NCBI GenBank assembly: GCA_965225945.1
Contig: CBDDBZ010000021.1
Coordinates: forward strand, 32,001-96,000
Source of the DNA: Alphaproteobacteria bacterium
GTDB lineage: Bacteria; Pseudomonadota; Alphaproteobacteria; GCA-2731375
Length of the DNA stretch: 64,000 nucleotides
Direction of reading: 5' to 3'
Positions within the stretch are counted from its first letter, which is position 1. Each line of letters starts with the position of its first letter. The notes beneath the pieces were generated by a model. That model was not told where the DNA came from, searched no databases, and saw only the letters and a list, made by a program, of their open reading frames with translations. The position numbers and the translations under genes are program-made. Below, one piece after another: positions 4,483 through 57,721 of the stretch.

Positions 4483-5943
4483 CAGCCCGTTGATTAAGTG
4501 GCTTTTTCCGGCTCTCACTCCCAGATGAGGAATGCGGCGGCGAAAACCGTCTGGCCGCTTTGCGAGACCCCCAGTGCGACCAGCATGGCCCCGGTGGGCG
4601 TGAGCAGCACGAAAATACCGCCATATCCGCCCGCCACGGCCTCGCGCGGGGTGCCGGCGCCGATGAGTTGGCGCATCAGCAACGATAGGTTGTGGCCGGC
4701 GACGTGGAGCAGGTATCGCTTGTGCACGTTCTCGCGGCCCCGAAGCCAGGTCCGGCGCATGCCGCCGCGATCGAGGTTGTGGGCGAAGGAGCGCTCGACG
4801 ATCTCGGCGCGCAGCTTGAAGGCTTCCTTGGCCACCCCCGATAACAGCCGGGTCCGGTTGTTGGTGACCGCGCGCCGCGCCGCCTCGTCGCCGCGCCAGC
4901 GCGCGAAGCCCTTCTGCTTGGGCTCGGCGATCCGGGTCTTCCACGGGCCGTTGTCCAAGGCCTTCAAGACCGCCCGTGAGTGATAGCCTTTGTCGGTCAC
5001 ACATTCGGCCGGGTCCTCTGCCGTCGGCGCCGCGTCAACGCTCGCAAGGTTCTCCTTGGCCGTCTCCAACGTTTTGGGAAGCGTCGTCGTGTCGCCCTCG
5101 TCGGCCGGGTGCAGCTCGGCGGCCACCACCGCGCCGGTGTCCAGATCCACCGCGTGCTCGGGCTTGTAGGCCAGATGCGTCGTGCCGTCCTTCATCTTGG
5201 CGATCTTGGCCTCGGGATCGCTCTTCGAAACCCAGTCCTCGTTGGAAAGCTTCTTGCCCTTGCGCTTGCGGTCCAGACGCGCCAAGTCCTCGGCCGTGGG
5301 CGTCTCGATGCCGCTCTCCCGGGCCAGGTGCTCCAGCATCTCCCGGTAGCCTTCACCCGTGTCGCGCCGCACGATGTTGCGCAGCGCCGCGTTGGCCTCC
5401 ATGGTCGAGGCATCCACCCCGATGCGCTCGCCCTTCACCAGACCCGCCTCGCCGATCAAGGCCAGAACCCAGTCGAAGACCGCCGCGTGGACTTCATGGG
5501 GCAGGCGCGCGCGGGTCCGTGACAGCCAGGAATGGTCCGGCACCCGTTCCCGCATCTCCAACAGCAGGAACTCCCGTAGCGACAGGGAATCCGAGCAGCG
5601 CCACTCCAGCCCACGCTCAGAGTCGATACCCTCGAAGTAGCCCACCAGGTGCATACGGAAGTAGCGCCCGGGTGGCACCGAAGGCGCCCCCATCCTGGCC
5701 GCGTAATAGGGCTGGCAGACCGCCTCGGCGAAGCCGTCGAAGCCGCCCTCGATCAGCACCGACTGCAGGCGGTCGTAAAACACATGACCCGGCGAGCGCG
5801 GCATCTCCGCCCAGCCCACCATCAAGTCCCCCTGAGGATCCTTCTGCTGTCCCATCGCCATCGGCGAATCCTCCGGTCAAATCAGAACATCAAAGAATCA
5901 GACCAAGCCGCTTGCGTCCAGTGCCGACTTCGTCAACGGGCTG
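4483..5943 (-). mobile_element. IS1182-family insertion sequence (1461 bp)
   Basis: Terminal IRs CAGCCCGTTGATTAAGT / ACTTCGTCAACGGGCTG (15/17 match); 4-bp target duplication CTAT at 4479-4482 and 5944-5947. Confidence 0.93.
4515..5861 (-). CDS. IS1182-family DDE transposase
   Basis: 448 aa; GIDSERGLEWRC..SLSLREFL, PDHSWLSR, GVDAST, DPEA, DKGYHS and VERSFA motifs. Confidence 0.92.
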   Translation of the reverse strand: MAMGQQKDPQGDLMVGWAEMPRSPGHVFYDRLQSVLIEGGFDGFAEAVCQPYYAARMGAPSVPPGRYFRMHLVGYFEGIDSERGLEWRCSDSLSLREFLLLEMRERVPDHSWLSRTRARLPHEVHAAVFDWVLALIGEAGLVKGERIGVDASTMEANAALRNIVRRDTGEGYREMLEHLARESGIETPTAEDLARLDRKRKGKKLSNEDWVSKSDPEAKIAKMKDGTTHLAYKPEHAVDLDTGAVVAAELHPADEGDTTTLPKTLETAKENLASVDAAPTAEDPAECVTDKGYHSRAVLKALDNGPWKTRIAEPKQKGFARWRGDEAARRAVTNNRTRLLSGVAKEAFKLRAEIVERSFAHNLDRGGMRRTWLRGRENVHKRYLLHVAGHNLSLLMRQLIGAGTPREAVAGGYGGIFVLLTPTGAMLVALGVSQSGQTVFAAAFLIWE

Positions 5944-20062: not shown

Positions 20063-20199
20063 TTCGGCCTTTGTGACGGGTGGCGGGGCGGGACAAGTCA
20101 ATCGCGAAAAAGTCCCTCGGCTTCGCCTCGGTGGGCTTTTTCCCGAACAATTATCCGAGAGCGCGAGGTAAAAATCGAGTTTGCCGGCGCGTTGGTGGA

Positions 20200-20811
20200 T
20201 CAGCGCGAATAATACTCAATCACCAGGTTCGGCTCCATGCGGACCGGGTAGGGCACGTCGGCGAATTTCGGCACCCGCGTGAAGGTGCCTCGCATGGTGC
20301 GGTAGTCGACCTCGACATAGTCGGGGGTATCGCGCTCGGCGCTGTCGATCGCCTCCAGCAGCATCACCATCTGGCGCGATTTCTCCCGTACCTCGACGAC
20401 GTCGCCCTCGGCCACCCGGAAACTCGGGATGGTGACCCGGCGGCCGTTCACCGAGACATGACCGTGGTTGACGAACTGTCGGGCGGCGAACACCGTCGGC
20501 ACGAACTTCATGCGATAGACCACGGCGTCCAAGCGGCGCTCCAAGAGGCCGATCAAGTTTTCCGAGGTATCGCCCCGGCGCCTCACCGCCTCCGCGTAGA
20601 CCCGGCGGAATTGCTTCTCGGTGATGTTGCCGTAGTAGCCCTTGAGCTTCTGTTTGGCGGAGAGCTGGATGCCGTAATCGGACGGCTTGCGCCGGCGCTG
20701 ACCGTGTTGGCCGGGGCCGTATTCGCGCCGGTTCACCGGGCTCTTCGGCCGGCCCCAGAGATTTTCGCCGAGCCGCCGGTTCAGCTTGTATTTCGAATGT
20801 CCGTCTCGTCG
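20200..20811 (-). CDS. rpsD: 30S ribosomal protein S4; 5' end disrupted by a tandem repeat
   Basis: [33 protein letters not shown]...[11 protein letters not shown]...ARQFVNHGH...LVIEYYSR. The frame is closed upstream by TGA at 20814-20812. Confidence 0.95.
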
Positions 20812-20939
20812 TCATGTCCGTCTCGTCGTCATGTCCGTCTCGTCCGTCCGTTCGTCGTCATGTCCGTCTCGTCGTCATGTCCGTCTCGTCGTCATGTCCG
20901 TCTCGTCGTCATGTCCGTCTCGTCGTCATGTCCGTCTCG
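20797..20939. repeat. 17-bp tandem repeat (ATGTCCGTCTCGTCGTC), about 8.5 copies with a degenerate middle
   Basis: Perfect units start at 20797, 20814, 20860, 20877, 20894 and 20911; 20831-20859 is degenerate; 20928-20939 is partial. Confidence 0.97.
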
Positions 20940-21025
20940 CTCGCCGGTCCCGCCCGAGCCTCGGGCGGGCCGCTTGAATTCGCTTGGCTTGGGGCCGGCC
21001 GGGGCAGGCTCCGCGCCGAAACGCG

Positions 21026-21054
21026 CTAATACAAGGCCGTCGGGCACAAGTCAA
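21026..21054 (-). promoter_or_regulatory. Putative sigma70 promoter of rpsD
   Basis: TTGACT-17 nt-TATTAG on the minus strand. Confidence 0.6.
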
Positions 21055-21842
21055 ACCTCGCCGTCGCGTCGGTTTGCGGCCTCTTGCTCCAGAGCCGGGC
21101 CGGCCCGCCGCAGCGCGCTGACGATGCCGTGGAGCGTCCTCACTTCGGCTTCGCTGAACCCGGCGCGGGCGAACATGTTGCGGATGTTGCGGGTCATGGC
21201 GGGCCGCTTCTCCGGTGGCTTCAGAAAGCCGCCCGCGTCGAGCCCCGCCTCGAGGCGGCGGTGGAAGTTCTCCAACTCGGCGGCGCTCGCCCGCGCCGCG
21301 CCGCTCGGCGGCGCTTCCGCCACCGGGTCGGCTCGGAACCACTCGTGCCCCATCAACAGCACCGCCTGCGCCAGGTTGAGGGAAGAGAAGGCCGGGTTGG
21401 TCGCCACCTCGACGATGGCGGCGGCCGGGGCGATGTCGTCGTTGTCGAGCCCGGCCCGCTCAGCCCCGAACAGAATGCCGGCCTTTTCGCCCCGAGCCAG
21501 CGCGTGGCGCAGCCTCGCCGCCGCCTCGCGCGGGCGCAGCACCGGCTTCGCCATGTCGCGCGCCCGCGCCGTGGTCGCCAGCACCAGGTTCAAATCGGCG
21601 ATCGCGTCAGCCGTCGTGGCGTGGACCGTCGCCCGGTCCAATACGAGGTCCGCTCGGCTCGCCGCGGCCCGCGCCTGCTCGCTCGGCCAGCCGTCGCGCG
21701 GCGCCACCAAGCGCAGTTCGGTGAGGCCGAAGTTCAACATCGCGCGGGCCGCCGCGCCGATATTCTCGCCCAATTGCGGGCGCACGAGGACGACGGCGGG
21801 GCCGCCGAGGACGGCCGGCCTGGAGGTATCGGTTCCGGCCAT
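21051..21842 (-). CDS. trmJ: SPOUT RNA methyltransferase, TrmJ/LasT family
   Basis: VLVRPQLGENIGAAARAMLNFG, ILFGAERAGLDN and SSLNLAQAV motifs. Confidence 0.9.
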   Translation of the reverse strand: MAGTDTSRPAVLGGPAVVLVRPQLGENIGAAARAMLNFGLTELRLVAPRDGWPSEQARAAASRADLVLDRATVHATTADAIADLNLVLATTARARDMAKPVLRPREAAARLRHALARGEKAGILFGAERAGLDNDDIAPAAAIVEVATNPAFSSLNLAQAVLLMGHEWFRADPVAEAPPSGAARASAAELENFHRRLEAGLDAGGFLKPPEKRPAMTRNIRNMFARAGFSEAEVRTLHGIVSALRRAGPALEQEAANRRDGEV

Positions 21843-21966
21843 GGCGCTTCAACTCCGGCGAGGTCGGGGCGAGCCTCGAGCTATATCACGACTTCGCGGC
21901 GTCTGGTCTTTGCCCGAGGTGATGCTATGGTCGCAGCGACACGCGGTGACCATGTCGGGAGGGGAG

Positions 21967-22752
21967 ATGAGCCTCGAGGCGACCTCGATTGAGGTTTCGG
22001 ACGTCCGGATCGATCTCCGCGCGGGCGGCGCGGGGCGGACATTTCTCTATCTTCACGGCGGTCTCGGGCCCGGCGGCGACGAGGTCTTTCTCGACGCGCT
22101 GGCGGGCGAGGCCCGCGTCCTGGCGCCGACCCACCCCGGTTTCGGTGCCTCCGAGTGGCCGCGCGAGTTCCGCGGCGTCGACGATCTGGCCTATTTCTAC
22201 CTCGACTTCGCCGAGGCCTATGGGCTCGACGACGCGGTCCTGGTCGGCGCCTGCTTCGGCGGCTGGCTCGCCGCCGAGATGCTGATCCGCAGCCGGCGGC
22301 AGTTCTCCCGCGCGGTGTTGATCGGGACGCTCGGGGCCAAGTTCTCCGACCGGCTGAGCCGCGACATCGCCGACATTCACGGCGCCGAGAAGGCGGAGCT
22401 CGACCGCCTGCTGTTCCACGATCCGGCGTTTGCCGCGCGCGACCTGACGGCGCTCGACGAGGCGACGCTGACCGCGATCGCGCGGGACCGCGAGGCCTTC
22501 GCCTATTACGGCTGGAAACCCTACATGCACAATCCCGGGCTGCGGCGCTGGTTGCACCGGATCGACGTCGCGACCCTGCTGATTTGGGGCGAGAGCGACG
22601 GCTTCGTCACCCCCGATTACGGCCGCGCCTGGGCCGCGGCGATACCCGGCGCGCGGCTGGAGACGATTGCGGAAGCGGGACATTTTCCCCATCTCGAACA
22701 GCCCGAGGAGACGGCGGCCCATGTCTTGGCCTTCGCCGCCGAGGGCCGGTAG
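21967..22752 (+). CDS. Alpha/beta hydrolase fold protein
   Basis: YLHGGLG, HPGFG, nucleophile elbow GACFGG (Cys at the usual Ser position), WGESD, AGHFPHLEQP. Confidence 0.88.
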   Translation: MSLEATSIEVSDVRIDLRAGGAGRTFLYLHGGLGPGGDEVFLDALAGEARVLAPTHPGFGASEWPREFRGVDDLAYFYLDFAEAYGLDDAVLVGACFGGWLAAEMLIRSRRQFSRAVLIGTLGAKFSDRLSRDIADIHGAEKAELDRLLFHDPAFAARDLTALDEATLTAIARDREAFAYYGWKPYMHNPGLRRWLHRIDVATLLIWGESDGFVTPDYGRAWAAAIPGARLETIAEAGHFPHLEQPEETAAHVLAFAAEGR

Positions 22753-24010: not shown

Positions 24011-24315
24011 GGCCCTCGGGCGCGCCGCCCGGCGCGCCGCCCTCGACATCGGCTCCCAACCGCGTCCCGTTCGGGCGGCGAGGCTTTCAGGCTCGACCGC
24101 CAATTCGTACTCATTTGGGTGATTTATTTGTTGTTATTTTGGATTAGCTTTGGGTTCGCGGGACCAAGTTGGTTTCGTGACTTGCCGTTTTGGCGGTTTT
24201 GTCGAGGATTTCGGGGTGTTTTGATGTCGAATGTGACGCTGCGCACTTTGAATTCCGGCAATTTTATCCAAATCTCCTGAGAGCCAATGGGCGCTAGGGG
24301 ATATTCGGGAGCAGC

Positions 24316-27300
24316 ATGATGGCCGATAGCATCGAGACCACGGGCATGAACGAGAGCGCGGGCACGACCACGGGCATGGCGGAGAACCTGGCGGCGGTGG
24401 ACGATTCCGTGCTTGTCGGCGCCGAGGGCCAGGTGACGGCGGTCGGCCAGGCGGATCTCGGCGAGACGGTCGAGGTCACGGACGAATCGCAGGAGATCGC
24501 GGTCGATCCGGGCGACGACTTCGTGCTCCCCGAAGGCATCGCCTCGGGCGACATCCAATATTCACAGTTCGAAGGCAGCCTGGTGATCGTGCTGCCGAGC
24601 GGCTCCGAGATCACCTTCACCGATTTCTTCGTGATCGCCTCTCAGCAGGAAGAGGGGGGCCTGCCCCCGGTGCTGACCCTGGCGGACGGCACGGTGATGG
24701 ACCCGCCCCTGGTGATCGCCCAGATCGCGGACTTCGACCCCAACGCGGTCGAGGCGGCGGCCGGCGGCGGCGGCGGCACTGGCGGCAACGCCTCGTTCTC
24801 GCCCTATGCCAGCGGCGACATCGGCCCCGGCGACGCCGCGCTGGATCTGTTGGGCAACTTGCCGGGCTTCCCCTTCGACCTCGGGAACCTGGAGGAGGAG
24901 TTCCTGGACGAGGCCGGCGGTCTGTTCCAGGTGGTGACTGCGCTCTCCCAGGTCGTGCCGGTGGGTCTGCCGACGGACCTGCCGTCGAGCGTCACCGGGT
25001 TGATCTCCGGCGACTTCGACGGCGGCTTCGAGGATGCGCTGCCGAACCAGCATCTGGGCGCGGTCGATGCGGCCAACGAGACCAAGACGCAGTTGGTGAT
25101 CGAGTTCGTGCCCGACGACGACGAGGTCGTCGAGAGCTTCGCGGTCGAGGGCATCCCGTTGGACGTGCGGATCTTCATCCGCCCGCTCGACGGCGGCGCC
25201 GACGTCGAGCTTGCGCACGACGGCTCGGTGACGGTGCCGGGGAGCTTGCTCAACAACATTTTCCTGATTCCGCCGGAGGACAACGACGCCGACATTCCGC
25301 TGTCGTTCAGCGCCGTGGTGGTGGATCCGCAGAATCCGACCAATCCGGTGACGCTGACGGGCACCTTCACGGTGGTGATCGACGCGGTGGCGGACGTCCC
25401 CTCGGTCGGCCCGACCGGGACCGGCGGCGGCTTCGTCGCGGGCGCGATCCCGAGCGTCGAGGGCGAGGCGGGCGGCACGGTCGCGGTCAACCTCGACGTC
25501 GTCTCGAACGATATCGACGGCTCGGAGACGACGGCGGTTCAGCTGTTCTTCTCCTCGCCCCAGAACTTCACCGCGGCGGACTTCGACGTGATCGCGGTGG
25601 GCGCGGAACTGGTGGTGCCGGAGGACGGCTCGCCGCCGTTCTGGGTGGTGCCGCAAGAGGGCTTCGCGGGCCTGCAAATCGTGGTGCCGGAGTCGGCGAC
25701 CGAGACCGTCGACGTCTTCGCCTTCGGCGTGGCGACGGAGACCTTGATCACCGGCGAGGAGCTGACCTTCGACAACAACCAGGCGTCGACCAAGAAGGCG
25801 GTGGCCTTCCAGATCGCGCTGGAGGGCGAGCTGATCGTCAACATCGGCAACCCGACCTTCCTGGAGACGGAGACGGATGATGTTCTGACGATCTCCTTCG
25901 CGGACCTCCAGGTGAGCGCGACGCTGGGCGGCGCGGGCCGCCCGGACCTGGTGGAGAGCGTGACGGCGACGTTCGAGAATCTGCCGGACGGCGCGGTGAT
26001 CTTGGACGCCTCGGGCAATGTGGTGGCGACGGCCTCGGGCGGCACGATCAGCGTGACGGCGCCGAGCCTGGACGACTTCAACGCGTTGACGCTGCAACTC
26101 CCCGCCGACTTCGCGACGCCGGGCCCGGGTGGTGTCATCGATCCGGGCGACATCAGCGGCACGGTGGTGGTGGAGAGCCCGGTCGCGGTGCTGAACCCGC
26201 AACCCGGCTCGATCGCCATCGACGTCGCGGTCGAGGGCGACATCGACGTGACGGCGGCGCCGGAGACGACGGCGGAAGACCAGAACCTGGCGACCATCTC
26301 CGACGGCGCCGGCAACAGCGTGACCTTGAACGTGGTGGTGCTGAACCTGGCGGCGGTGGCGACGGACGCCGACGGCTCGGAGACGGTGCAGACGGCGACG
26401 GTAACCTTCAACGACGTGCCGGCGGGGACCGGCGTGCTGTTCTTCGGCACCGCCGGGGCGACGATCGCGACGGTCGAGCGGAGCGTCAATCCCGACGGCA
26501 CCGAGGATCTGGTGGTGAGCAACCTCTCGCCGGCCGAGCTGGCCACGCTGCGGCTCGGCGTGCCGGAGGACTATAGCGGGACGATCACGGGCAACGTGGT
26601 CTCGGCCTTCACCGACGAGCAGGGCGAGGATTCCGCGACCTTCATGGTCGTGGTGACGCCGACGCCGGTTCTGGTGCTGCCGAGCGAGAATATCGGCGGT
26701 TCCGGCCTGGACCAGGAGACCGACCAGCCGATCACGGTGGATCTGAACCTCTCGGCGGCGATCACGGACGGCGACGGCAGCGAGGTCCTCACCTCGATCA
26801 CGGTGACCTTCGACCAGTTGCCGGCCGGCACGACGGCGAGCGGCGGCACGCTGACCGGCCTGGTCTGGAGCGGCACGCAGGCCGAGCTCTCGGCGCTCGC
26901 GCTGACCTTCCCGACGGACTATTCCTCCGAAGACGGCGGCGTGATCAACGGCAGTCTCAGGGTGACCACGGACGAGGGCGGCGACCAGACCGTCGGCTTC
27001 ACGGTTCCGGTGCTGCCCGAGGAAGACCTCGACGTGGTCGCGAACGACGTCACCGTGCCGGAGTCGGACACGGGCGTGACGGTCAACCTGAGCCTGTCGG
27101 CGACGGTGACCGACCAGGACGGCTCGGAAGTGGTCGATAGCGTGACGGTGACCTTCACCGGCCTGCCCGCGGGCTCGTCGGTGAACGGCGGCACGCTGGT
27201 GGGTGGTGTCTGGAGCGGCACGGCCGTCGAGCTGGCGGCGCTGCAACTGACGCTTCCGGCGAGTTTCACGGGCGACATTACCGGCCTTCTCAACACCGGC

Positions 27301-30300
27301 CTTCTCAACGCGACCTCGGACGAGGGCGGCAACGAGAGCGCGCCGTTCACCATCACCGTCGATGCGATGCCCGATGTGATCGCGGTGGACGACGTGACGG
27401 TGGACGAGGACGGCTTCGAGACCGCCAACCTCGATGACTCGCCGCTACGGCCGGGTGAAGTGGACAGCACGGAGTCGACCACGGGCACGGGCACGATCAC
27501 GGTCGATTTCGAAGCCGACGTCCCGGCGACGCTGGACGGCTCGTTGAGGCTTCTCGACTCGCCCGCTCTCGACGGCCAGTTGACGACGCTGGACGGCGGC
27601 TCGGTGAGCTTCACGAGCCCGGATGGCGGTCTGACGCTGGTCGGCACGGTGCCCGACGGCGAGGGCACGCGCGAGGTGCTGACGATCGCGGTGCAGACGG
27701 GGGCCTCGGCGAGCGGCACGGAGGTGACCTACACCTACGTGGCGACGCTGAACGAGCCGCTGGAGCATCCCGACCCCGAGGAGGGCGGGAACACCGAGAA
27801 CACCTTGACCTTGAGCGGCGTCGGCTTCGTGGCGACGGACTCGGACGGCGACCCGACGCCGGCGGCGAGCTTCGACGTGACGATCGTCGACGACATTCCG
27901 CTGGCGGTGAACGACGCGACGACCACGGCGGAGGATACCCAGGTCACCTACAACGTGATCACCAACACCGACGGGACCTCGGACGCGTCGGGCGCGGACG
28001 CGCCGCTGACGCTGGTCTCGGCGGGTCTATCCAGTGGTTCGGGCTCCGTGAGCTTCGCCTCGAACGGCGACGTCACCTTCACGCCGGCGAACGGCTTCGA
28101 GGGCGACGCGGTGATCGCCTACACGATCGAGGACCAGGACGGCGACCGGTCCTCGGCGACGCTGACGGTGACGGTCGGCGATGATTCGACCCCGATCGTG
28201 ACCCTGGACGAGGACGTGACGGTGGACGAGGACGGCTTGTCGGGCGCCAACCTGGACGGCACGCCGCTTCGGACGGGCGAGGTGGACAGCACCGAGGACG
28301 ACACGGCGACGGGGACGATCAAGGTCGACTATCTGAACGCGGCGGATGTTCCGGGGACGCCGGACGGCTCCCTGAAGCTTCTCGACTCGGCGGCTCTCGA
28401 CGGCCAGCTGACGACGCTGGACGGTCTCTCGGTCAGCTTTGCGCTTGACGGCGACCAGAAGCTCGTCGGCTCGGTGACGGACGGCCAGAATGTCACCCGC
28501 GAGGTGTTGACGATCGAGGTTCAGACCGGGGCCTCGGCGAGCGGCACGGAGGTGACCTACACCTACGTGGCGACGCTGAACGAGCCGCTGGAGCATCCCG
28601 ACCCCGAGGAGGGCGGGAACACCGAGAACACCTTGACCTTGAGCGGCGTCGGTTTCGTGGCGACGGACTCGGACGGCGACCCGACGCCGGCGGCTTCGTT
28701 CGACGTGACGATCGTCGACGACATTCCGCTGGCGGTGGACGACGCGACGACGACGGCGGAGGACACCCAGGTCACCTACAACGTGATCACCAACACCGAC
28801 GGGACCTCGGACGCGTCGGGCGCGGACGCGCCGCTGACGCTGGTCTCGGCGGGTCTGTCCAGTGGTTCGGGCTCCGTGAGCTTCGCCTCGAACGGCGACG
28901 TCACCTTCACGCCGGCGAACGGCTTCGAGGGCGACGCGGTGATCGCCTACACGATCGAGGACCAGGACGGCGACCGGTCCTCGGCGACGCTGACGGTGAC
29001 GGTCGGCGATGATTCGACCCCGATCGTGACCCTGGACGAGGACGTGACGGTGGACGAGGACGGCTTGTCGGGCGCCAACCTGGACGGCACGCCGCTTCGG
29101 ACGGGCGAGGTGGACAGCACCGAGGACGACACGGCGACGGGGACGATCAAGGTCGACTATCTGAACGCGGCGGATGTTCCGGGGACGCCGGACGGCTCCC
29201 TGAAGCTTCTCGACTCGGCGGCTCTCGACGGCCAGCTGACGACGCTGGACGGTCTCTCGGTCAGCTTTGCGCTTGACGGCGACCAGAAGCTCGTCGGCTC
29301 GGTGACGGACGGCCAGAATGTCACCCGCGAGGTGTTGACGATCGAGGTTCAGACCGGGGCCTCGGCGAGCGGCACGGAGGTGACCTACACCTACGTGGCG
29401 ACGCTGAACGAGCCGCTGGAGCATCCCGACCCCGAGGAGGGCGGGAACACCGAGAACACCTTGACCTTGAGCGGCGTCGGTTTCGTGGCGACGGACTCGG
29501 ACGGCGACCCGACGCCGGCGGCGAGCTTCGACGTGACGATCGTCGACGACATTCCGCTGGCGGTGGACGACGCGACGACGACGGCGGAGGACACCCAGGT
29601 CACCTACAACGTGATCACCAACACCGACGGGACCTCGGACGCGTCGGGCGCGGACGCGCCGCTGACGCTGGTCTCGGCGGGTCTGTCCAGTGGTTCGGGC
29701 TCCGTGAGCTTCGCCTCGAACGGCGCCATCACCTTCACGCCGGCCAACGGCTTCGAGGGCCCGGCGGTGATCGACTACACGATTCAAGACCAGGACGGCG
29801 ACCAGTCCTCGGCGAGCTTGACGGTGACGGTGGGCGATGATTCGACCCCGGTGGTGACCCAGGACGACGACGTGACGGTCGACGAGGACGGCTTCCAGTC
29901 CGCCAACCTCGACGGCACACCGACGCTGCGGCCGGGTGAAGTGGACAGCACGGAGCTGACCGCGGCGACGGGGACGATCAAGGTCGACTACCAGAACGCG
30001 GCGGATGTCCCGGGGACCTTGGACGGCTCCCTCAGGCTTCTCGACTCGGTCGCTCTCGACGGCCAGTTGACGACGCTGGACGGCGGCTCGGTGAGCTTCA
30101 CGAGCCCGGATGGCGGTCTGACGCTGGTCGGCACGGTGCCCGACGGCGAGGGCACGCGCGAGGTGCTGACGATCGCGGTGCAGACGGGGGCCTCGGCGAG
30201 CGGCACGGAGGTGACCTACACCTACGTGGCGACGCTGAACGAGCCGCTGGAGCATCCCGACCCGGCGGAGGGCGGCGATACGGAGAACACTCTGACCTTG

Positions 30301-31845
30301 AGCGGCGTCGGCTTCGTGGCGACGGACTCGGACGGCGACCCGACGCCGGCGGCGAGCTTCGACGTGACGATCGTCGACGACATTCCGTCGATCGATTCCG
30401 CCATCGACGGCATCTTGGCGAGCGAATCGGGGAACGCGCTCAGCGGAACCTACGAAGCCGACTTCGGCGCCGACGGGCTCGACCTGCTGACCGTGGCGCT
30501 GGGCAACGCTGTGACCGACTTCGCCTTCACGGAGTTGGCTCCGGTCGGCGGCGTGACCCAGGTCAACGTGACGCCGACGGCGGGCGACGACTTCACCTTC
30601 TACTACACCAAGACGGATGGTGGGGTCGGCACGCCGGCGCTGCTCGAGGCCTACGGCGATCTCGCCCTCTCCGAAGTCAATCGGTTCTTCACCATGGCGG
30701 TGAACGACGACGGGACCTATGATTTCGATCTCCACAGCAACGCGATCGCCACTCGCACGACGACCGATTTCAGCACCGTCGATCCCGGCATCAAGGATCA
30801 GCTCCACCTGCCGTCGGGGACCGAGGATCCGCCGGCCGACGGGATTTTCTCGGTGCTGGTCGACGCGCTGGCGCCGGACAGCAACGGAGTTCTGCAGGAC
30901 GTCCGGGTCAACACCTCAACGCACGGCATCGGCGCCTCGAACCAGAACACGGTTCAGGGCGAGGTGGTGACCTTCGACTTCCGGAACGATCAGTCCTTGG
31001 TCCGCTTCGACGTCACCAAGTGGCAATCCGGCGCGGCGGTGCTGACCATCATCGTGACCCTGGCGGACGGCTCCACCCACACCGAGGACGTGCCCGTCAC
31101 CAAGACCAGCGGCGGTAGCGATCCGACGGTCGAGGTGGTGTTTGGCACGCTCCCGACGGGCCTGGCCGACGCGGCGGTGGTCGTGGCTCAGGAATTCGAC
31201 CATATCGACGTCGTGTACAAGACCGGCACCGAGAACATCAACTACAACAACCTGGAGTTCGACCAGGAGTTCATCGTCGACGACCTGGCCTTCAACTTCA
31301 CGCTGGGGGCCACCGACAACGATGGCGACACGGCCACGCTCACGGATGCGGTGATGATCGATATCGAGAGCTACGTCGACGCGGGCGACAGCATCGTCGG
31401 CAGCGGCGATGGCGAGGCGATCGCCGGTGGCACCGGCGACGACACGCTCACGGGCCTCGGCGGCGACGACTTCCTGTTCGGCGGCGCCGGCGACGACGAG
31501 CTCTCGGGTGGGACCGGCGACGACGTCTTCTTCTCCGACGCCGCCGCCCTTGCCGACGGCGACGGGACGGGCCTCACCGATCACGACGTCATCCTCGACT
31601 ACGAGGCCGGCGACACCATCGATCTCGATGCCCTGTTCGATTTCCTCGATCCCGATCGCACGACGGATGTGAATACGGATCCGGTCGTGACGGAGGACAA
31701 TTCGATCGACCGCACAGGCGACAGCACGATTGACACCCTGATCACGGTCACCGACGAGAGTGGCGGCGCCGTTTCGGACTTCTCGATCGTGCTGAACGAC
31801 TTCACCGGTACCGTCGACATAGACGAAGGCACCGGCGGCGTCTGA
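24316..31845 (+). CDS. Giant LapA/RTX-type T1SS-secreted adhesin (2509 aa)
   Basis: N-terminal retention-module-like region ending DPNAVEAAAGGGGGTGG; acidic Ig/cadherin-like repeats (DxDGD, TTAEDT); C-terminal GGxGxD nonapeptides; no Sec signal peptide. Confidence 0.92.
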   Translation: MMADSIETTGMNESAGTTTGMAENLAAVDDSVLVGAEGQVTAVGQADLGETVEVTDESQEIAVDPGDDFVLPEGIASGDIQYSQFEGSLVIVLPSGSEITFTDFFVIASQQEEGGLPPVLTLADGTVMDPPLVIAQIADFDPNAVEAAAGGGGGTGGNASFSPYASGDIGPGDAALDLLGNLPGFPFDLGNLEEEFLDEAGGLFQVVTALSQVVPVGLPTDLPSSVTGLISGDFDGGFEDALPNQHLGAVDAANETKTQLVIEFVPDDDEVVESFAVEGIPLDVRIFIRPLDGGADVELAHDGSVTVPGSLLNNIFLIPPEDNDADIPLSFSAVVVDPQNPTNPVTLTGTFTVVIDAVADVPSVGPTGTGGGFVAGAIPSVEGEAGGTVAVNLDVVSNDIDGSETTAVQLFFSSPQNFTAADFDVIAVGAELVVPEDGSPPFWVVPQEGFAGLQIVVPESATETVDVFAFGVATETLITGEELTFDNNQASTKKAVAFQIALEGELIVNIGNPTFLETETDDVLTISFADLQVSATLGGAGRPDLVESVTATFENLPDGAVILDASGNVVATASGGTISVTAPSLDDFNALTLQLPADFATPGPGGVIDPGDISGTVVVESPVAVLNPQPGSIAIDVAVEGDIDVTAAPETTAEDQNLATISDGAGNSVTLNVVVLNLAAVATDADGSETVQTATVTFNDVPAGTGVLFFGTAGATIATVERSVNPDGTEDLVVSNLSPAELATLRLGVPEDYSGTITGNVVSAFTDEQGEDSATFMVVVTPTPVLVLPSENIGGSGLDQETDQPITVDLNLSAAITDGDGSEVLTSITVTFDQLPAGTTASGGTLTGLVWSGTQAELSALALTFPTDYSSEDGGVINGSLRVTTDEGGDQTVGFTVPVLPEEDLDVVANDVTVPESDTGVTVNLSLSATVTDQDGSEVVDSVTVTFTGLPAGSSVNGGTLVGGVWSGTAVELAALQLTLPASFTGDITGLLNTGLLNATSDEGGNESAPFTITVDAMPDVIAVDDVTVDEDGFETANLDDSPLRPGEVDSTESTTGTGTITVDFEADVPATLDGSLRLLDSPALDGQLTTLDGGSVSFTSPDGGLTLVGTVPDGEGTREVLTIAVQTGASASGTEVTYTYVATLNEPLEHPDPEEGGNTENTLTLSGVGFVATDSDGDPTPAASFDVTIVDDIPLAVNDATTTAEDTQVTYNVITNTDGTSDASGADAPLTLVSAGLSSGSGSVSFASNGDVTFTPANGFEGDAVIAYTIEDQDGDRSSATLTVTVGDDSTPIVTLDEDVTVDEDGLSGANLDGTPLRTGEVDSTEDDTATGTIKVDYLNAADVPGTPDGSLKLLDSAALDGQLTTLDGLSVSFALDGDQKLVGSVTDGQNVTREVLTIEVQTGASASGTEVTYTYVATLNEPLEHPDPEEGGNTENTLTLSGVGFVATDSDGDPTPAASFDVTIVDDIPLAVDDATTTAEDTQVTYNVITNTDGTSDASGADAPLTLVSAGLSSGSGSVSFASNGDVTFTPANGFEGDAVIAYTIEDQDGDRSSATLTVTVGDDSTPIVTLDEDVTVDEDGLSGANLDGTPLRTGEVDSTEDDTATGTIKVDYLNAADVPGTPDGSLKLLDSAALDGQLTTLDGLSVSFALDGDQKLVGSVTDGQNVTREVLTIEVQTGASASGTEVTYTYVATLNEPLEHPDPEEGGNTENTLTLSGVGFVATDSDGDPTPAASFDVTIVDDIPLAVDDATTTAEDTQVTYNVITNTDGTSDASGADAPLTLVSAGLSSGSGSVSFASNGAITFTPANGFEGPAVIDYTIQDQDGDQSSASLTVTVGDDSTPVVTQDDDVTVDEDGFQSANLDGTPTLRPGEVDSTELTAATGTIKVDYQNAADVPGTLDGSLRLLDSVALDGQLTTLDGGSVSFTSPDGGLTLVGTVPDGEGTREVLTIAVQTGASASGTEVTYTYVATLNEPLEHPDPAEGGDTENTLTLSGVGFVATDSDGDPTPAASFDVTIVDDIPSIDSAIDGILASESGNALSGTYEADFGADGLDLLTVALGNAVTDFAFTELAPVGGVTQVNVTPTAGDDFTFYYTKTDGGVGTPALLEAYGDLALSEVNRFFTMAVNDDGTYDFDLHSNAIATRTTTDFSTVDPGIKDQLHLPSGTEDPPADGIFSVLVDALAPDSNGVLQDVRVNTSTHGIGASNQNTVQGEVVTFDFRNDQSLVRFDVTKWQSGAAVLTIIVTLADGSTHTEDVPVTKTSGGSDPTVEVVFGTLPTGLADAAVVVAQEFDHIDVVYKTGTENINYNNLEFDQEFIVDDLAFNFTLGATDNDGDTATLTDAVMIDIESYVDAGDSIVGSGDGEAIAGGTGDDTLTGLGGDDFLFGGAGDDELSGGTGDDVFFSDAAALADGDGTGLTDHDVILDYEAGDTIDLDALFDFLDPDRTTDVNTDPVVTEDNSIDRTGDSTIDTLITVTDESGGAVSDFSIVLNDFTGTVDIDEGTGGV
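27388..30387 (+). repeat. About 3.6 copies of an 828-bp (276-aa) near-identical repeat inside the adhesin
   Basis: GASASGTEVTYTYVATLNEPLEHPDP recurs at about 27700, 28528, 29356 and 30187 (spacings 828, 828, 831). Confidence 0.95.
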
Positions 31846-43291: not shown

Positions 43292-44285
43292 TTAGCCTCC
43301 GACCTCGACCATGCGTCCTTCCGCCAGCGAGCGGTAGGCGGCGTCGGCCAGGAGCAGAGCGCGGCGACCGTCCTCGGCGGTGGTGCGCGGCGCGGCCCCG
43401 TCGAGGAGGCAGGCGAGGAAATGTTCGAGCTCCAGCCTGTAGGCCTCGGCGTAGCGTTGGAGAAAGAAATCGAGCGGACGTTCGCCGGTGACACCATCGG
43501 CGTCGGTCACCTCGAGCGTGGTCTCGGTCCGGTTGGCGACGCGCAGCATGCCGTTCGATCCCAGAACTTCCAGGCGCTGGTCGTAGCCGTAGACCGCGCG
43601 CCGGCTGTTGGTGATGACGGCGATCTGGCCGGCTTCAGTGACCAGGGTGATGGCAGCGGTAATCGTGATCGCCCGCCTCGGCCGCCGCCGGATCGAACAG
43701 CCGGCTGGCGGTGGCGTGGAGGCGCACCGGCTCGGCCCCCAGCAACCAGCGCGCCATGTCGAAGTCGTGGATGGTCATGTCGCGGAATAGACCGCCGGAG
43801 CGCCGCAGATATTCCAAGGGCGGCGGTTCCGGGTCGCGACTGGTGATGATCACCGTCTCCACCCGGCCGATTCGTCCCTCGTCAATCGCCCGCTTCAGTG
43901 CGGCCATGCTCGGATCGAAGCGGCGGTTGAAGCCGACCTGCAGCAGGACGCCGGCCTCCCGGGCGACCGCCAGGCAGCCCTCGACGCGGGCGAGATCCAG
44001 GTCGATCGGCTTCTCGCAGAAGATCGCCTTGCCGGCGCGGGCCGAGGCCTCGATCAGCTCGGCGTGGGTATCGGTGCTGCTGGCGATGATCACCGCGCCG
44101 ACGGCAGGGTCCGAGAGCGCGACGTCGACGTCGCTCACCTCGCCGCCGTGACGGGCCGCGAGACGTTTGGCGGCCTCGGCGTCGATGTCGACGACATGGC
44201 GAAGGCGGGCGCGATCCGCGGTCGCCAGATTGGCGGCATGGATCTGGCCGATGCGGCCGGCGCCGAATTGCACGATCTCGATCAT
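43292..44285 (-). pseudogene. iolG: Inositol 2-dehydrogenase, frameshifted
   Basis: GAGRIG, CEKP, GFNRRFD and DMTIHDFD motifs. A one-base insertion near 43661 shifts GDHD|TAAITL...NSRRAVYGYDQRLEVLGS into another frame. Confidence 0.85.
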
Positions 44286-44410
44286 GGCCCCACTCCGACG
44301 ATGCTACCTCGTGGTCTATCAGGTGCTGGAGGTGGCGCAAACCCGCTTGGCCGCTTCGACCTGCACTCTACTATTCCTTCCCTCGCGCGATTTACCCGAG
44401 GTGGCGCCAC

Positions 44411-54004: not shown

Positions 54005-54062
54005 CGTCCCGGCGGCTTCCCGGCGGCTTCCCAGCAGCGTCCCGGCGGCGTCCCGGCGGCGT
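54005..54062. repeat. 11-bp tandem repeat C(G/T)TCCC(G/A)GC(G/A)G, 5 copies
   Basis: Units start at 54005, 54016, 54027, 54038 and 54049. Confidence 0.9.
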
Positions 54063-54077
54063 CGCAGAGATGCCCGA

Positions 54078-56880: not shown

Positions 56881-57721
56881 GGTCGTGGACTCATTAGCTC
56901 GCAACCAGATGCGGATGGCGGCGAGCTTGATCATGGCGAGATAGTTGGCGGCGAGCTTTTCGTAGCGTGTCGCGATGCGCCGGCAGTGCTTGAGCCGGTT
57001 GAAGAAGCGCTCGACTCGGTTGCGCTCGCGCTAGAGCGTCGGGCTGAAGGCGTGGCGCGGCTTGCGATTGCTGCGATCGGGGATGTTGGCGGCAGCGTCC
57101 TGATCCTCGATCAGTTGCCTGATCTCATCGCTCTCGTAGGCCTTGTCGGCGAGCACGAAGCAGTCCGGCTGAAGCGCCTCCAAAAGCGTCGGCGCGGCCT
57201 GACTGTCGTGCGCCTGGCCGGGCGTGAGGTCGAAGCGGAACGGCAGGCCCTGGGCATCGACCAGGGCATGGATCTTGGTCGTCAATCCACCTCGGCTACG
57301 ACCCATGCAACGATCTCCGGCGTTTTTTTTGCCCCTGCCGCGTGCTGATGCACCCGCACGCTCGTGCTATCGATCATCTGCACGTTGCCGTCATAGGCCT
57401 GGACGATGGCGTCCATCAACCGGTCCCAGACACCGGCCTTGCGCCAGCGGTTGAAGCGGTTCTAGCAGGTCGTGTAGGGCCCGTAGCGCTCCGGCAGGTC
57501 GCGCCACGGCGCACCCGAGCGCAAGATCCAGAAAATCCCGTTCAGAACCCGCCGGTCGTCCACCCGCGGCACACCCCGCGGCTTGTTCGGCAACAGCGGC
57601 GCAATCACCGACCACTCAAAATCCGTCAGATCGTAACGTCCACCCATGATCCAGCTCCCACAGTTTGGAAGCTTGAATCACATTTGCCCCAAAAAGGGAA
57701 TCACTTTATGAGTACACAACC
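56881..57721 (-). mobile_element. IS5-family (IS427-like) element with an inactivated transposase
   Basis: IRs GGTCGTGGACTCAT / ATGAGTACACAACC (12/14 match) flanked by TA in a CTAG context; RYDLTDFEW, WRDLPERYG, SRGGLTTKIH, LADKAY and RNRVERFFN motifs; A8 frameshift run; internal TAG stops at 57462 and 57031. Confidence 0.9.

Follow-up and report, generated by a model that had tools for sequence, protein, structure and literature searches.

A 17-nt tandem array lies across the start of the gene for ribosomal protein S4 (rpsD; uS4) in the window that we analyzed, which is a 64-kb stretch of a contig from an alphaproteobacterium. The array leaves S4 without an uninterrupted reading frame. We consider it probable that a short tandem duplication over the ribosome-binding region and start codon of rpsD has expanded out of control, in a change private to this contig, and that the array is a lesion rather than a regulator. 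As to where the frame break lies, in the DNA of the cell or just in the assembly or its consensus, the chances seem about equal.

The S4 reading frame is open for 203 codons (20200..20811 on the minus strand), and it contains both of the domains expected of the family: the Ribosomal_S4 N-terminal domain (Pfam PF00163, 1.2e-27) and the S4 RNA-binding domain (PF01479, 1.6e-19). However, the frame has no start codon leading into x-[KR]-R-x-x-x-K-[YHF]-K, the pattern with which S4 begins in the relatives. In agreement with an earlier note on this DNA, which had described S4 as lacking an uninterrupted frame, we found no ATG, GTG, or TTG start upstream of the GTG at 20736. This GTG is the first canonical start, and AAGAG lies 4-8 nt upstream of it. 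Starting there gives a protein of 178 amino acids, which is the N-truncated form that the note had proposed, and also the public gene call for this contig (P0121; 20200..20736, minus strand). By exact look-up in the public collection, P0121 is known from one contig only (110,537 bp). S4 is described as essential for the biogenesis of the 30S subunit, and its N-terminal region is implicated there in the tight and specific binding of 16S rRNA (PMC2665224).

The array extends over 20797..20939 on the minus strand. TRF reported a period of 17, 8.7 copies (close to the previous estimate of about 8.5), 92% matches, and a score of 251, which is the top score among the 13 rows for the 64-kb window; the runner-up locus scores 105. 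The unit, ATGACGACGAGACGGAC, occurs six times with no mismatches, always on the minus strand (at 20929, 20912, 20895, 20878, 20832, and 20815). By shuffling, 0.02 perfect copies would be expected, and none of 100 shuffles reached six. Reading along the minus strand, the array consists of a partial copy, four perfect copies, a 29-nt imperfect block, two more perfect copies, and then "AT." The imperfect block (20861-20833), which separates the fourth and fifth perfect copies, corresponds to two units minus 5 nt, with one substitution. At the other edge, the junction ACAT-TCG (20794..20800, minus strand) joins the last unit to codon 7 of S4, and the distance from the last ATG to codon 7 is 19 nt, not 18.

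Two other tandem loci in the window are worth recording. The second-strongest (54005-54067, read on the minus strand) has 5.4 copies of an 11-nt unit, GCCGCCGGGAC/A, and lies directly upstream of a promoter-like site (TTGACA-17-TATACC) before rplU-rpmA, which encode L21 and L27. An 11-nt period is about one helical turn, so the units may be a series of operator or UP-like sites. Also, a 2,515-amino-acid ORF on the plus strand (24298-31842), which is adhesin-like, with Big_9, cadherin-like, and RTX repeats, contains identical 18-nt tandem-repeat rows at 28197-28234 and 29025-29062. These are about 828 nt apart, which suggests a large internal duplication in the ORF. The exact protein from the first ATG of this ORF was absent from the protein collection that we searched.

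When we recomputed the reading frames over the start of rpsD, we obtained the same picture that the earlier note had drawn. The perfect units encode MTTRRT, from the ATGs at 20929, 20912, 20895, 20878, and 20832, and each of these ORFs ends on the TGA of the next ATGA. Together with the 10-residue MTTNGRTRRT, which is encoded from the ATG at 20861, they form a chain of six mini-ORFs (20812..20929, minus strand) in which every stop overlaps the next ATG. Such a chain follows by arithmetic once a 17-nt unit includes ATGA. The ATG at 20832 is in the frame of S4 but is stopped by a TGA in that frame (20812..20814, minus strand). This TGA occupies the same codon position as the ATG of the homologues, in which six residues precede K-[YHF]-K; the last ATGA is shifted by one base, and this is why a stop stands at the proper position of the start codon.

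The last ATG (20815) is out of frame with S4, and the list of ORFs confirms that it opens an overlapping ORF of 199 amino acids (20216..20815, minus strand), which is the S4 gene read in the +1 frame. This ORF is not a gene, and its exact sequence was absent from the protein collection that we searched. Long ORFs in alternative frames are frequent in this window (65.8% G+C). An example is an 890-amino-acid ORF on the plus strand (20080-22752), whose stretch antisense to rpsD and to the adjacent methyltransferase gene is most likely open only because of the G+C richness; given this example, the 199-amino-acid ORF is no evidence of a gene. The C-terminal part of the 890-amino-acid ORF may be a real gene.

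The 5' ends of rpsD in close relatives, which the earlier note had singled out for comparison, are ordinary. We inspected all ten of the distinct S4 sequences in the 90% cluster that includes P0121. Nine of the ten have a start of the form MTKR[LV][RK]SKYK, either directly or behind an over-extended N terminus; the exception is P0121. P0122 (204 amino acids; found on four contigs, the longest of 1,231,031 bp) is identical to the window's S4 at 198 of 198 residues, from Ser7 (window position 20796) to the C terminus, and the S4 proteins of the same species that are identical from Ser7 onward start with MTKRLRSKYK. Because S4 and its flanking proteins are near-identical elsewhere, the window comes from a separate but extremely close assembly or strain, in a lineage that otherwise has a normal S4. 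We also considered 80 loci from relatives, which were obtained from one scan of genome contigs (best identity to the window, 83%). All 80 have a plain S4 start (M-x-[KR]-R-x-x-x-K-[YHF]-K, or more fully, [M/V/L]-[STAG]-[KR]-R-x-x-[SAV]-K-[YHF]-K, with six residues ahead of K-Y-K), none has an in-frame stop, and none has the tandem array.

The N-terminal extensions of some of these proteins give a view of the conspecific leaders. The over-extended calls P0127 and P0129 translate the leader in the frame of S4, starting with MPDGLVLAR. Within the window, the ORF at 20895-21047 (VPDGLV...) is identical to residues 1-49 of P0127 (MPDGLV...DDETDMTKRLRSKYK) at 47 of 49 positions; the differences are the V/M at the start and K3. 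The leaders of P0127 and P0129 include ERDGHD and DETDMT, which together are the translation of two consecutive 17-nt units. Judging from these translations, the conspecific leaders probably hold two copies' worth of the unit. On the basis of the match to P0127, the ATG of the second copy in the window (20910..20912, minus strand) is equivalent to the true S4 start of the conspecifics. The in-frame start that the earlier note had set against its own reading is thus found at the level of conspecific assemblies rather than of reads from this contig: in those assemblies, S4 does start in frame and without the expanded array.

In the sister species (P0001 and P0002; 93-94% identity in S4), translating the leader in the frame of the start gives ...ARRAPSSETKM or ...RARAAPSSETKM. 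The first ATG of the array (20927..20929, minus strand) is collinear and in frame with this start context: the window's frame of the ATG at 20929 reads ...ARAGPASETDM, and when ...PEARAGPASETDM from that frame is aligned by eye with ...PRARAAPSSETKM from P0002, 9 of 13 positions are identical. The sister species therefore appear to carry a single copy of the unit. As far as can be judged at the protein level, the copy number would run from about 1 in the sister species to 2 in the conspecifics and 8.7 on this contig.

These comparisons suggest how the break could have arisen. The starting point would be the two-copy duplication of this species, with S4 (MTKRLRSKYK) translated from the ATG in the second of the two copies. 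Perfect duplications of 17 nt are classic starting points for expansion by slippage, and slipped-strand mispairing on the pre-existing duplication may have expanded the array to 8.7 copies. This may have been followed by a junction event out of register or by an error of one base at the array's edge. A pure expansion would keep ATG-ACG-A and then the codons for K-R-L-R-S behind the last unit (...GGACATGACGA and then the KRLRS codons). Instead, the last unit runs on (CGAGACGGACAT) and abuts TCG, the codon for Ser7. The last unit thereby overruns codons 3-6 of S4, with 12 nt in place of the 11 nt of the homologues, which puts the last ATG at +1 from S4, and the S4 frame is closed by the TGA of the ATGA where the ATG belongs. 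Two descriptions of the change are equivalent: the array expanded and 16 nt were lost, or the repeat spread in register by a further period and a T was added at ACAT-TCG. If that T were removed, the last ATG would read MTTRRTSKYKLN... and S4 would have its normal length of 204 amino acids. None of the ten members of the cluster has such an in-frame allele (MTTRRTSKYK, that is, the array without the extra base).

Upstream of the array, a promoter-like sequence (TTGACT - 17 nt - TATTAG; 21026..21054, minus strand) precedes the rpsD leader. The elements of the promoter that the earlier note had placed here are visible by eye, but a scan for consensus promoters reported no sites; the scan misses TATTAG because the required final T is missing. 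Five relatives (L028, L054, L058, L059, and L060) have TTGAC[TA] and TATAGT ahead of their leader motif. A scan for terminators found one terminator-like site on the plus strand, which is at chance level. The 241 nt of the leader and array fold with z = -2.13, and 7 of 200 shuffles fold as well. The longest uninterrupted stem is a GC-rich hairpin in the 5' leader (GGCCCGCCCGA/UCGGGCGGG; 20946..20971, minus strand), which is present in both the minimum free energy and the centroid structures; in the latter, the array is without pairing in its 5' part. Between 19800 and 21500, there was no match to an Rfam family; three matches to unrelated families (E<=1) were below threshold, at 17.7-18.2 bits compared to gathering scores of 40-72.

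The relatives have leaders of their own. A motif, GGnCTACCGGGACAA, lies in the 3' part of the rpsD leader in 34 of 79 relatives, mostly about 35 nt before the ATG of S4, and 32 of these 34 leaders also have a 5' element, ATTCCCGGGAAyGTGG (for example, in the relatives' loci L004:2382-2467, L012:2374-2461, L021:2364-2460, and L054:2400-2469). RNAalifold, when run on 31 leaders with the motif, predicted a long-range helix of six pairs. Three of the six pairs change on both sides (CG to GU in nine sequences, GC to AU in three, and UA to GC in one). When 20 of the relatives' loci were scanned with Rfam 15, most of them with the GGnCTACCGGGACAA motif, there were no matches at the gathering score and nothing relevant. 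These leaders are a candidate for an unannotated S4 leader of Rhodospirillales/Acetobacterales-type Alphaproteobacteria; the S4 leaders published so far come from other phyla (PMC7247131). Rhodobacterales-type loci (such as L037, L046, L049, L055, and L069-L073) share another leader motif, AGGACAACGCCCTTC; GAAGGAGATCAGCC comes next, and S4 then starts with GTG. We considered whether the window's leader belongs with the conserved leader of the relatives and rejected this: the window lacks the 5' half of the motif, and as this half cannot be aligned, the clade of the window has a different leader.

The upstream neighbor of rpsD encodes a SpoU-family RNA methyltransferase (P0130; PF00588; 21051..21842, minus strand), and the exact protein is found on four contigs. 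A homologue is present in 24 of the relatives' 80 loci; in the 12 that were listed, it is upstream of rpsD on the same strand. Elsewhere in the window, we noticed a remnant of an IS4/IS5-family transposase on the minus strand (57034-57677), with two ORFs that match DUF4096 and part of a DDE domain (profile positions 30-108 of 200), and also a separate full-length DDE transposase ORF of 453 amino acids (4518-5876, minus strand). An iolG-like gene (43295-44303, minus strand), for an inositol 2-dehydrogenase of the GFO/IDH/MocA family, has an extra base at 43661 (GAT-T-ACC) compared to the intact 330-amino-acid P0146. Its 216-amino-acid fragment matches P0294 letter for letter, and because six contigs carry P0294, the lineage has a genuine pseudogene here. 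We rejected this frameshift as a sign of a poor assembly, because the contigs with P0294 include the one of 1.23 Mb.

Might the array serve a purpose, or might the gene be dispensable? The earlier note had raised the idea of an error-sensing or phase-variable control, in which translational accuracy or the copy number would set the level of S4. Error sensing draws on the role of S4 as the ram accuracy protein, and phase variation is suggested by a unit at the 5' end of the gene whose length is not a multiple of three and by the varying copy number among close relatives (about 1, 2, and 8.7). However, we give this idea only the slimmest of chances. When we simulated 1 to 12 copies of the unit with the observed 3' flank, not one of the 12 gave S4 in frame: each unit brings an ATG and the next unit brings its TGA, so a change in copy number cannot switch S4 on. 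Furthermore, rpsD is an essential and not a contingency gene, as described in PMC2665224, so an OFF state would be no usable phase. The expanded state is found on just one contig, the conspecifics start plainly, and damaged units are not what a maintained switch would have. We also think it very unlikely that the allele functions in another way, by readthrough of UGA after the ATG at 20832, by a +1 shift after the ATG at 20815, or as the 178-amino-acid protein. In favor of readthrough, the ATG at 20832 is in the frame of S4 with a single UGA in between, and that stop is followed by C, a context that is leaky in E. coli; in favor of the shorter protein, AAGAG precedes its GTG. However, there is no recoding in the relatives, given the plain starts at 80 of 80 loci and in nine of ten cluster members, and readthrough gives low yields whereas S4 is required in stoichiometric amounts. 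The stretch from the ATG at 20815 to codon 7 lacks any slippery or RF2-like CUU-UGA-C motif, and in ATG ACG ACG AGA CGG ACA T TCG, no +1 re-pairing of the P-site tRNA is possible, as such motifs are usually defined. The 178-amino-acid form would lose 26 N-terminal residues, including the conserved segment, from the region that PMC2665224 implicates in 16S binding. It strikes us as highly improbable that both the array and its junction are real and that the organism survives on S4 from UGA-C readthrough, with a new N terminus (MTTRRT-x-RRDGHS...), or on S4 without its 26 N-terminal residues; if it were so, the output of S4 would be tied to the leakiness of stop codons, and so to the very accuracy that is set by S4. 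We rejected a sense reading of TGA, as TGA ends six of the eight genes that we checked (S4, obg, L27, the methyltransferase, the TPP enzyme, and acs). In-frame stops between neighboring ORFs in the same frame elsewhere in the window turned out to be ordinary gene ends and intergenic spacers. Finally, if there were an intact second rpsD elsewhere, then this copy could be a decaying pseudogene that was free to gather an expansion and a frameshift. This would explain how an S4 gene without a start could be real, and the lineage does have a genuine pseudogene nearby (the iolG-like gene, common to six contigs). But this is unlikely too: tblastn with P0122 gave a single match in the 64-kb window, with no second S4; the copy adjoins the SpoU methyltransferase gene, a homologue of which is present in 24 of the relatives' 80 loci; and past the break, the identity of 198/198 to the conspecific S4 and a GC3 of 0.86 leave no decay beyond the start.

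A private lesion thus remains the reading that we favor, whether it arose in the cell or in the data. The earlier note had warned that an artefact of assembly or consensus was at least as likely, and its caution stands: the state is private to one contig, and we put the two possibilities roughly level. Because S4 is essential, a lethal lesion should not dominate a population, which points to an artefact or else to some unseen rescue. An artefact is also suggested by the privacy of this state among several near-identical assemblies, by units that are damaged when the rest of the genome matches its sisters almost letter for letter, and by the nature of the break, which is one base at the edge of a repeat, where polishing and consensus are weakest. 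On the other side, the window contains no N, and other proteins are matched exactly. The methyltransferase P0130, the 303-amino-acid neighbor P0140, Obg, L21, L27, and COX1 all have exact counterparts among entries on 3-12 contigs, and the one further frameshift, which affects the iolG-like gene, is genuine and common to six contigs; these six exact proteins and the shared frameshift do not support a generally sloppy assembly. (The sequence of Acs is private to this contig; the exact sequence of the TPP enzyme is found on two contigs and is one residue off its counterpart on the 1.23-Mb contig.) Also, the ACAT-TCG junction and the damaged units cannot be composed from the two-copy allele, so molecules or reads that carried the array most likely existed.

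Among known systems, the array most resembles a variable-number tandem repeat with slipped-strand expansion: the short units are near-identical and head to tail (8.7 copies, 92% matches), the copy number seems to differ between very close relatives (about 1, 2, and 8.7, from proteins), and a perfect duplication was already in place as a seed. Unlike such repeats, it covers the start codon of a ribosomal protein gene that is essential, and its 3' edge replaces coding sequence and shifts the frame, which makes it a null allele (or an assembly fault) instead of neutral length variation. Phase variation of contingency genes by simple sequence repeats, such as the Neisseria loci (PMC5084427), also involves a slippage-prone repeat at the 5' end of an ORF with a unit that is not a multiple of three. 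There, however, copy number toggles the frame, whereas here no copy number gives an ON state; an essential gene is affected here, and the unit is longer (17 nt, against 1-7 nt).

Another comparison is with upstream ORFs that are coupled to a main ORF by ATGA. The prfB gene, whose +1 frameshift motif is CUU-UGA-C, and UGA readthrough resemble this gene in having an in-frame UGA early in an essential translation gene, with a product that could in principle sense fidelity; the differences are that rpsD here has no shift-prone motif, no conservation in orthologues, and a private state. As for ATGA coupling, upstream ribosome-binding sites and upstream ORFs have been predicted in Sinorhizobium meliloti, as described in PMC13285730; the window contains a chain of six ORFs with overlapping stops and starts. 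If the DNA of the conspecifics matches the first two units of the window, then their two-copy state would give one upstream ORF of six codons (MTTRRT) whose UGA overlaps the AUG of S4. However, conservation of this ORF ends with the species (none of the 80 relatives' loci has the array), and no stop in the window overlaps an in-frame start of S4, as the last start (20815) is at +1 and the chain ends in the wrong frame. Nothing in our analysis points to a function for the chain. The location in the 5' leader of rpsD also recalls the autoregulatory S4 leaders in Rfam, which are described for Bacteroidia, Clostridia, Flavobacteria, and Fusobacteriales by Eckert and Weinberg (2020; PMC7247131). 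In contrast, the window's leader has no match in Rfam, and the array is purine-rich, with its 5' part unpaired in the centroid. A literature search did not find any paper on a tandem array at the start of rpsD, which is no proof of absence.

For annotation, the public 178-amino-acid S4 of this contig is a stump and not a genuine short S4. The ordered chain of ATGA mini-ORFs is striking, but it can be explained fully by the arithmetic of a 17-nt unit and a lesion on one contig, and it makes a cautionary example. If this allele is real and is the sole rpsD of the organism, then it would be a natural test of how much S4, or how much of the N terminus of S4, a bacterium needs.
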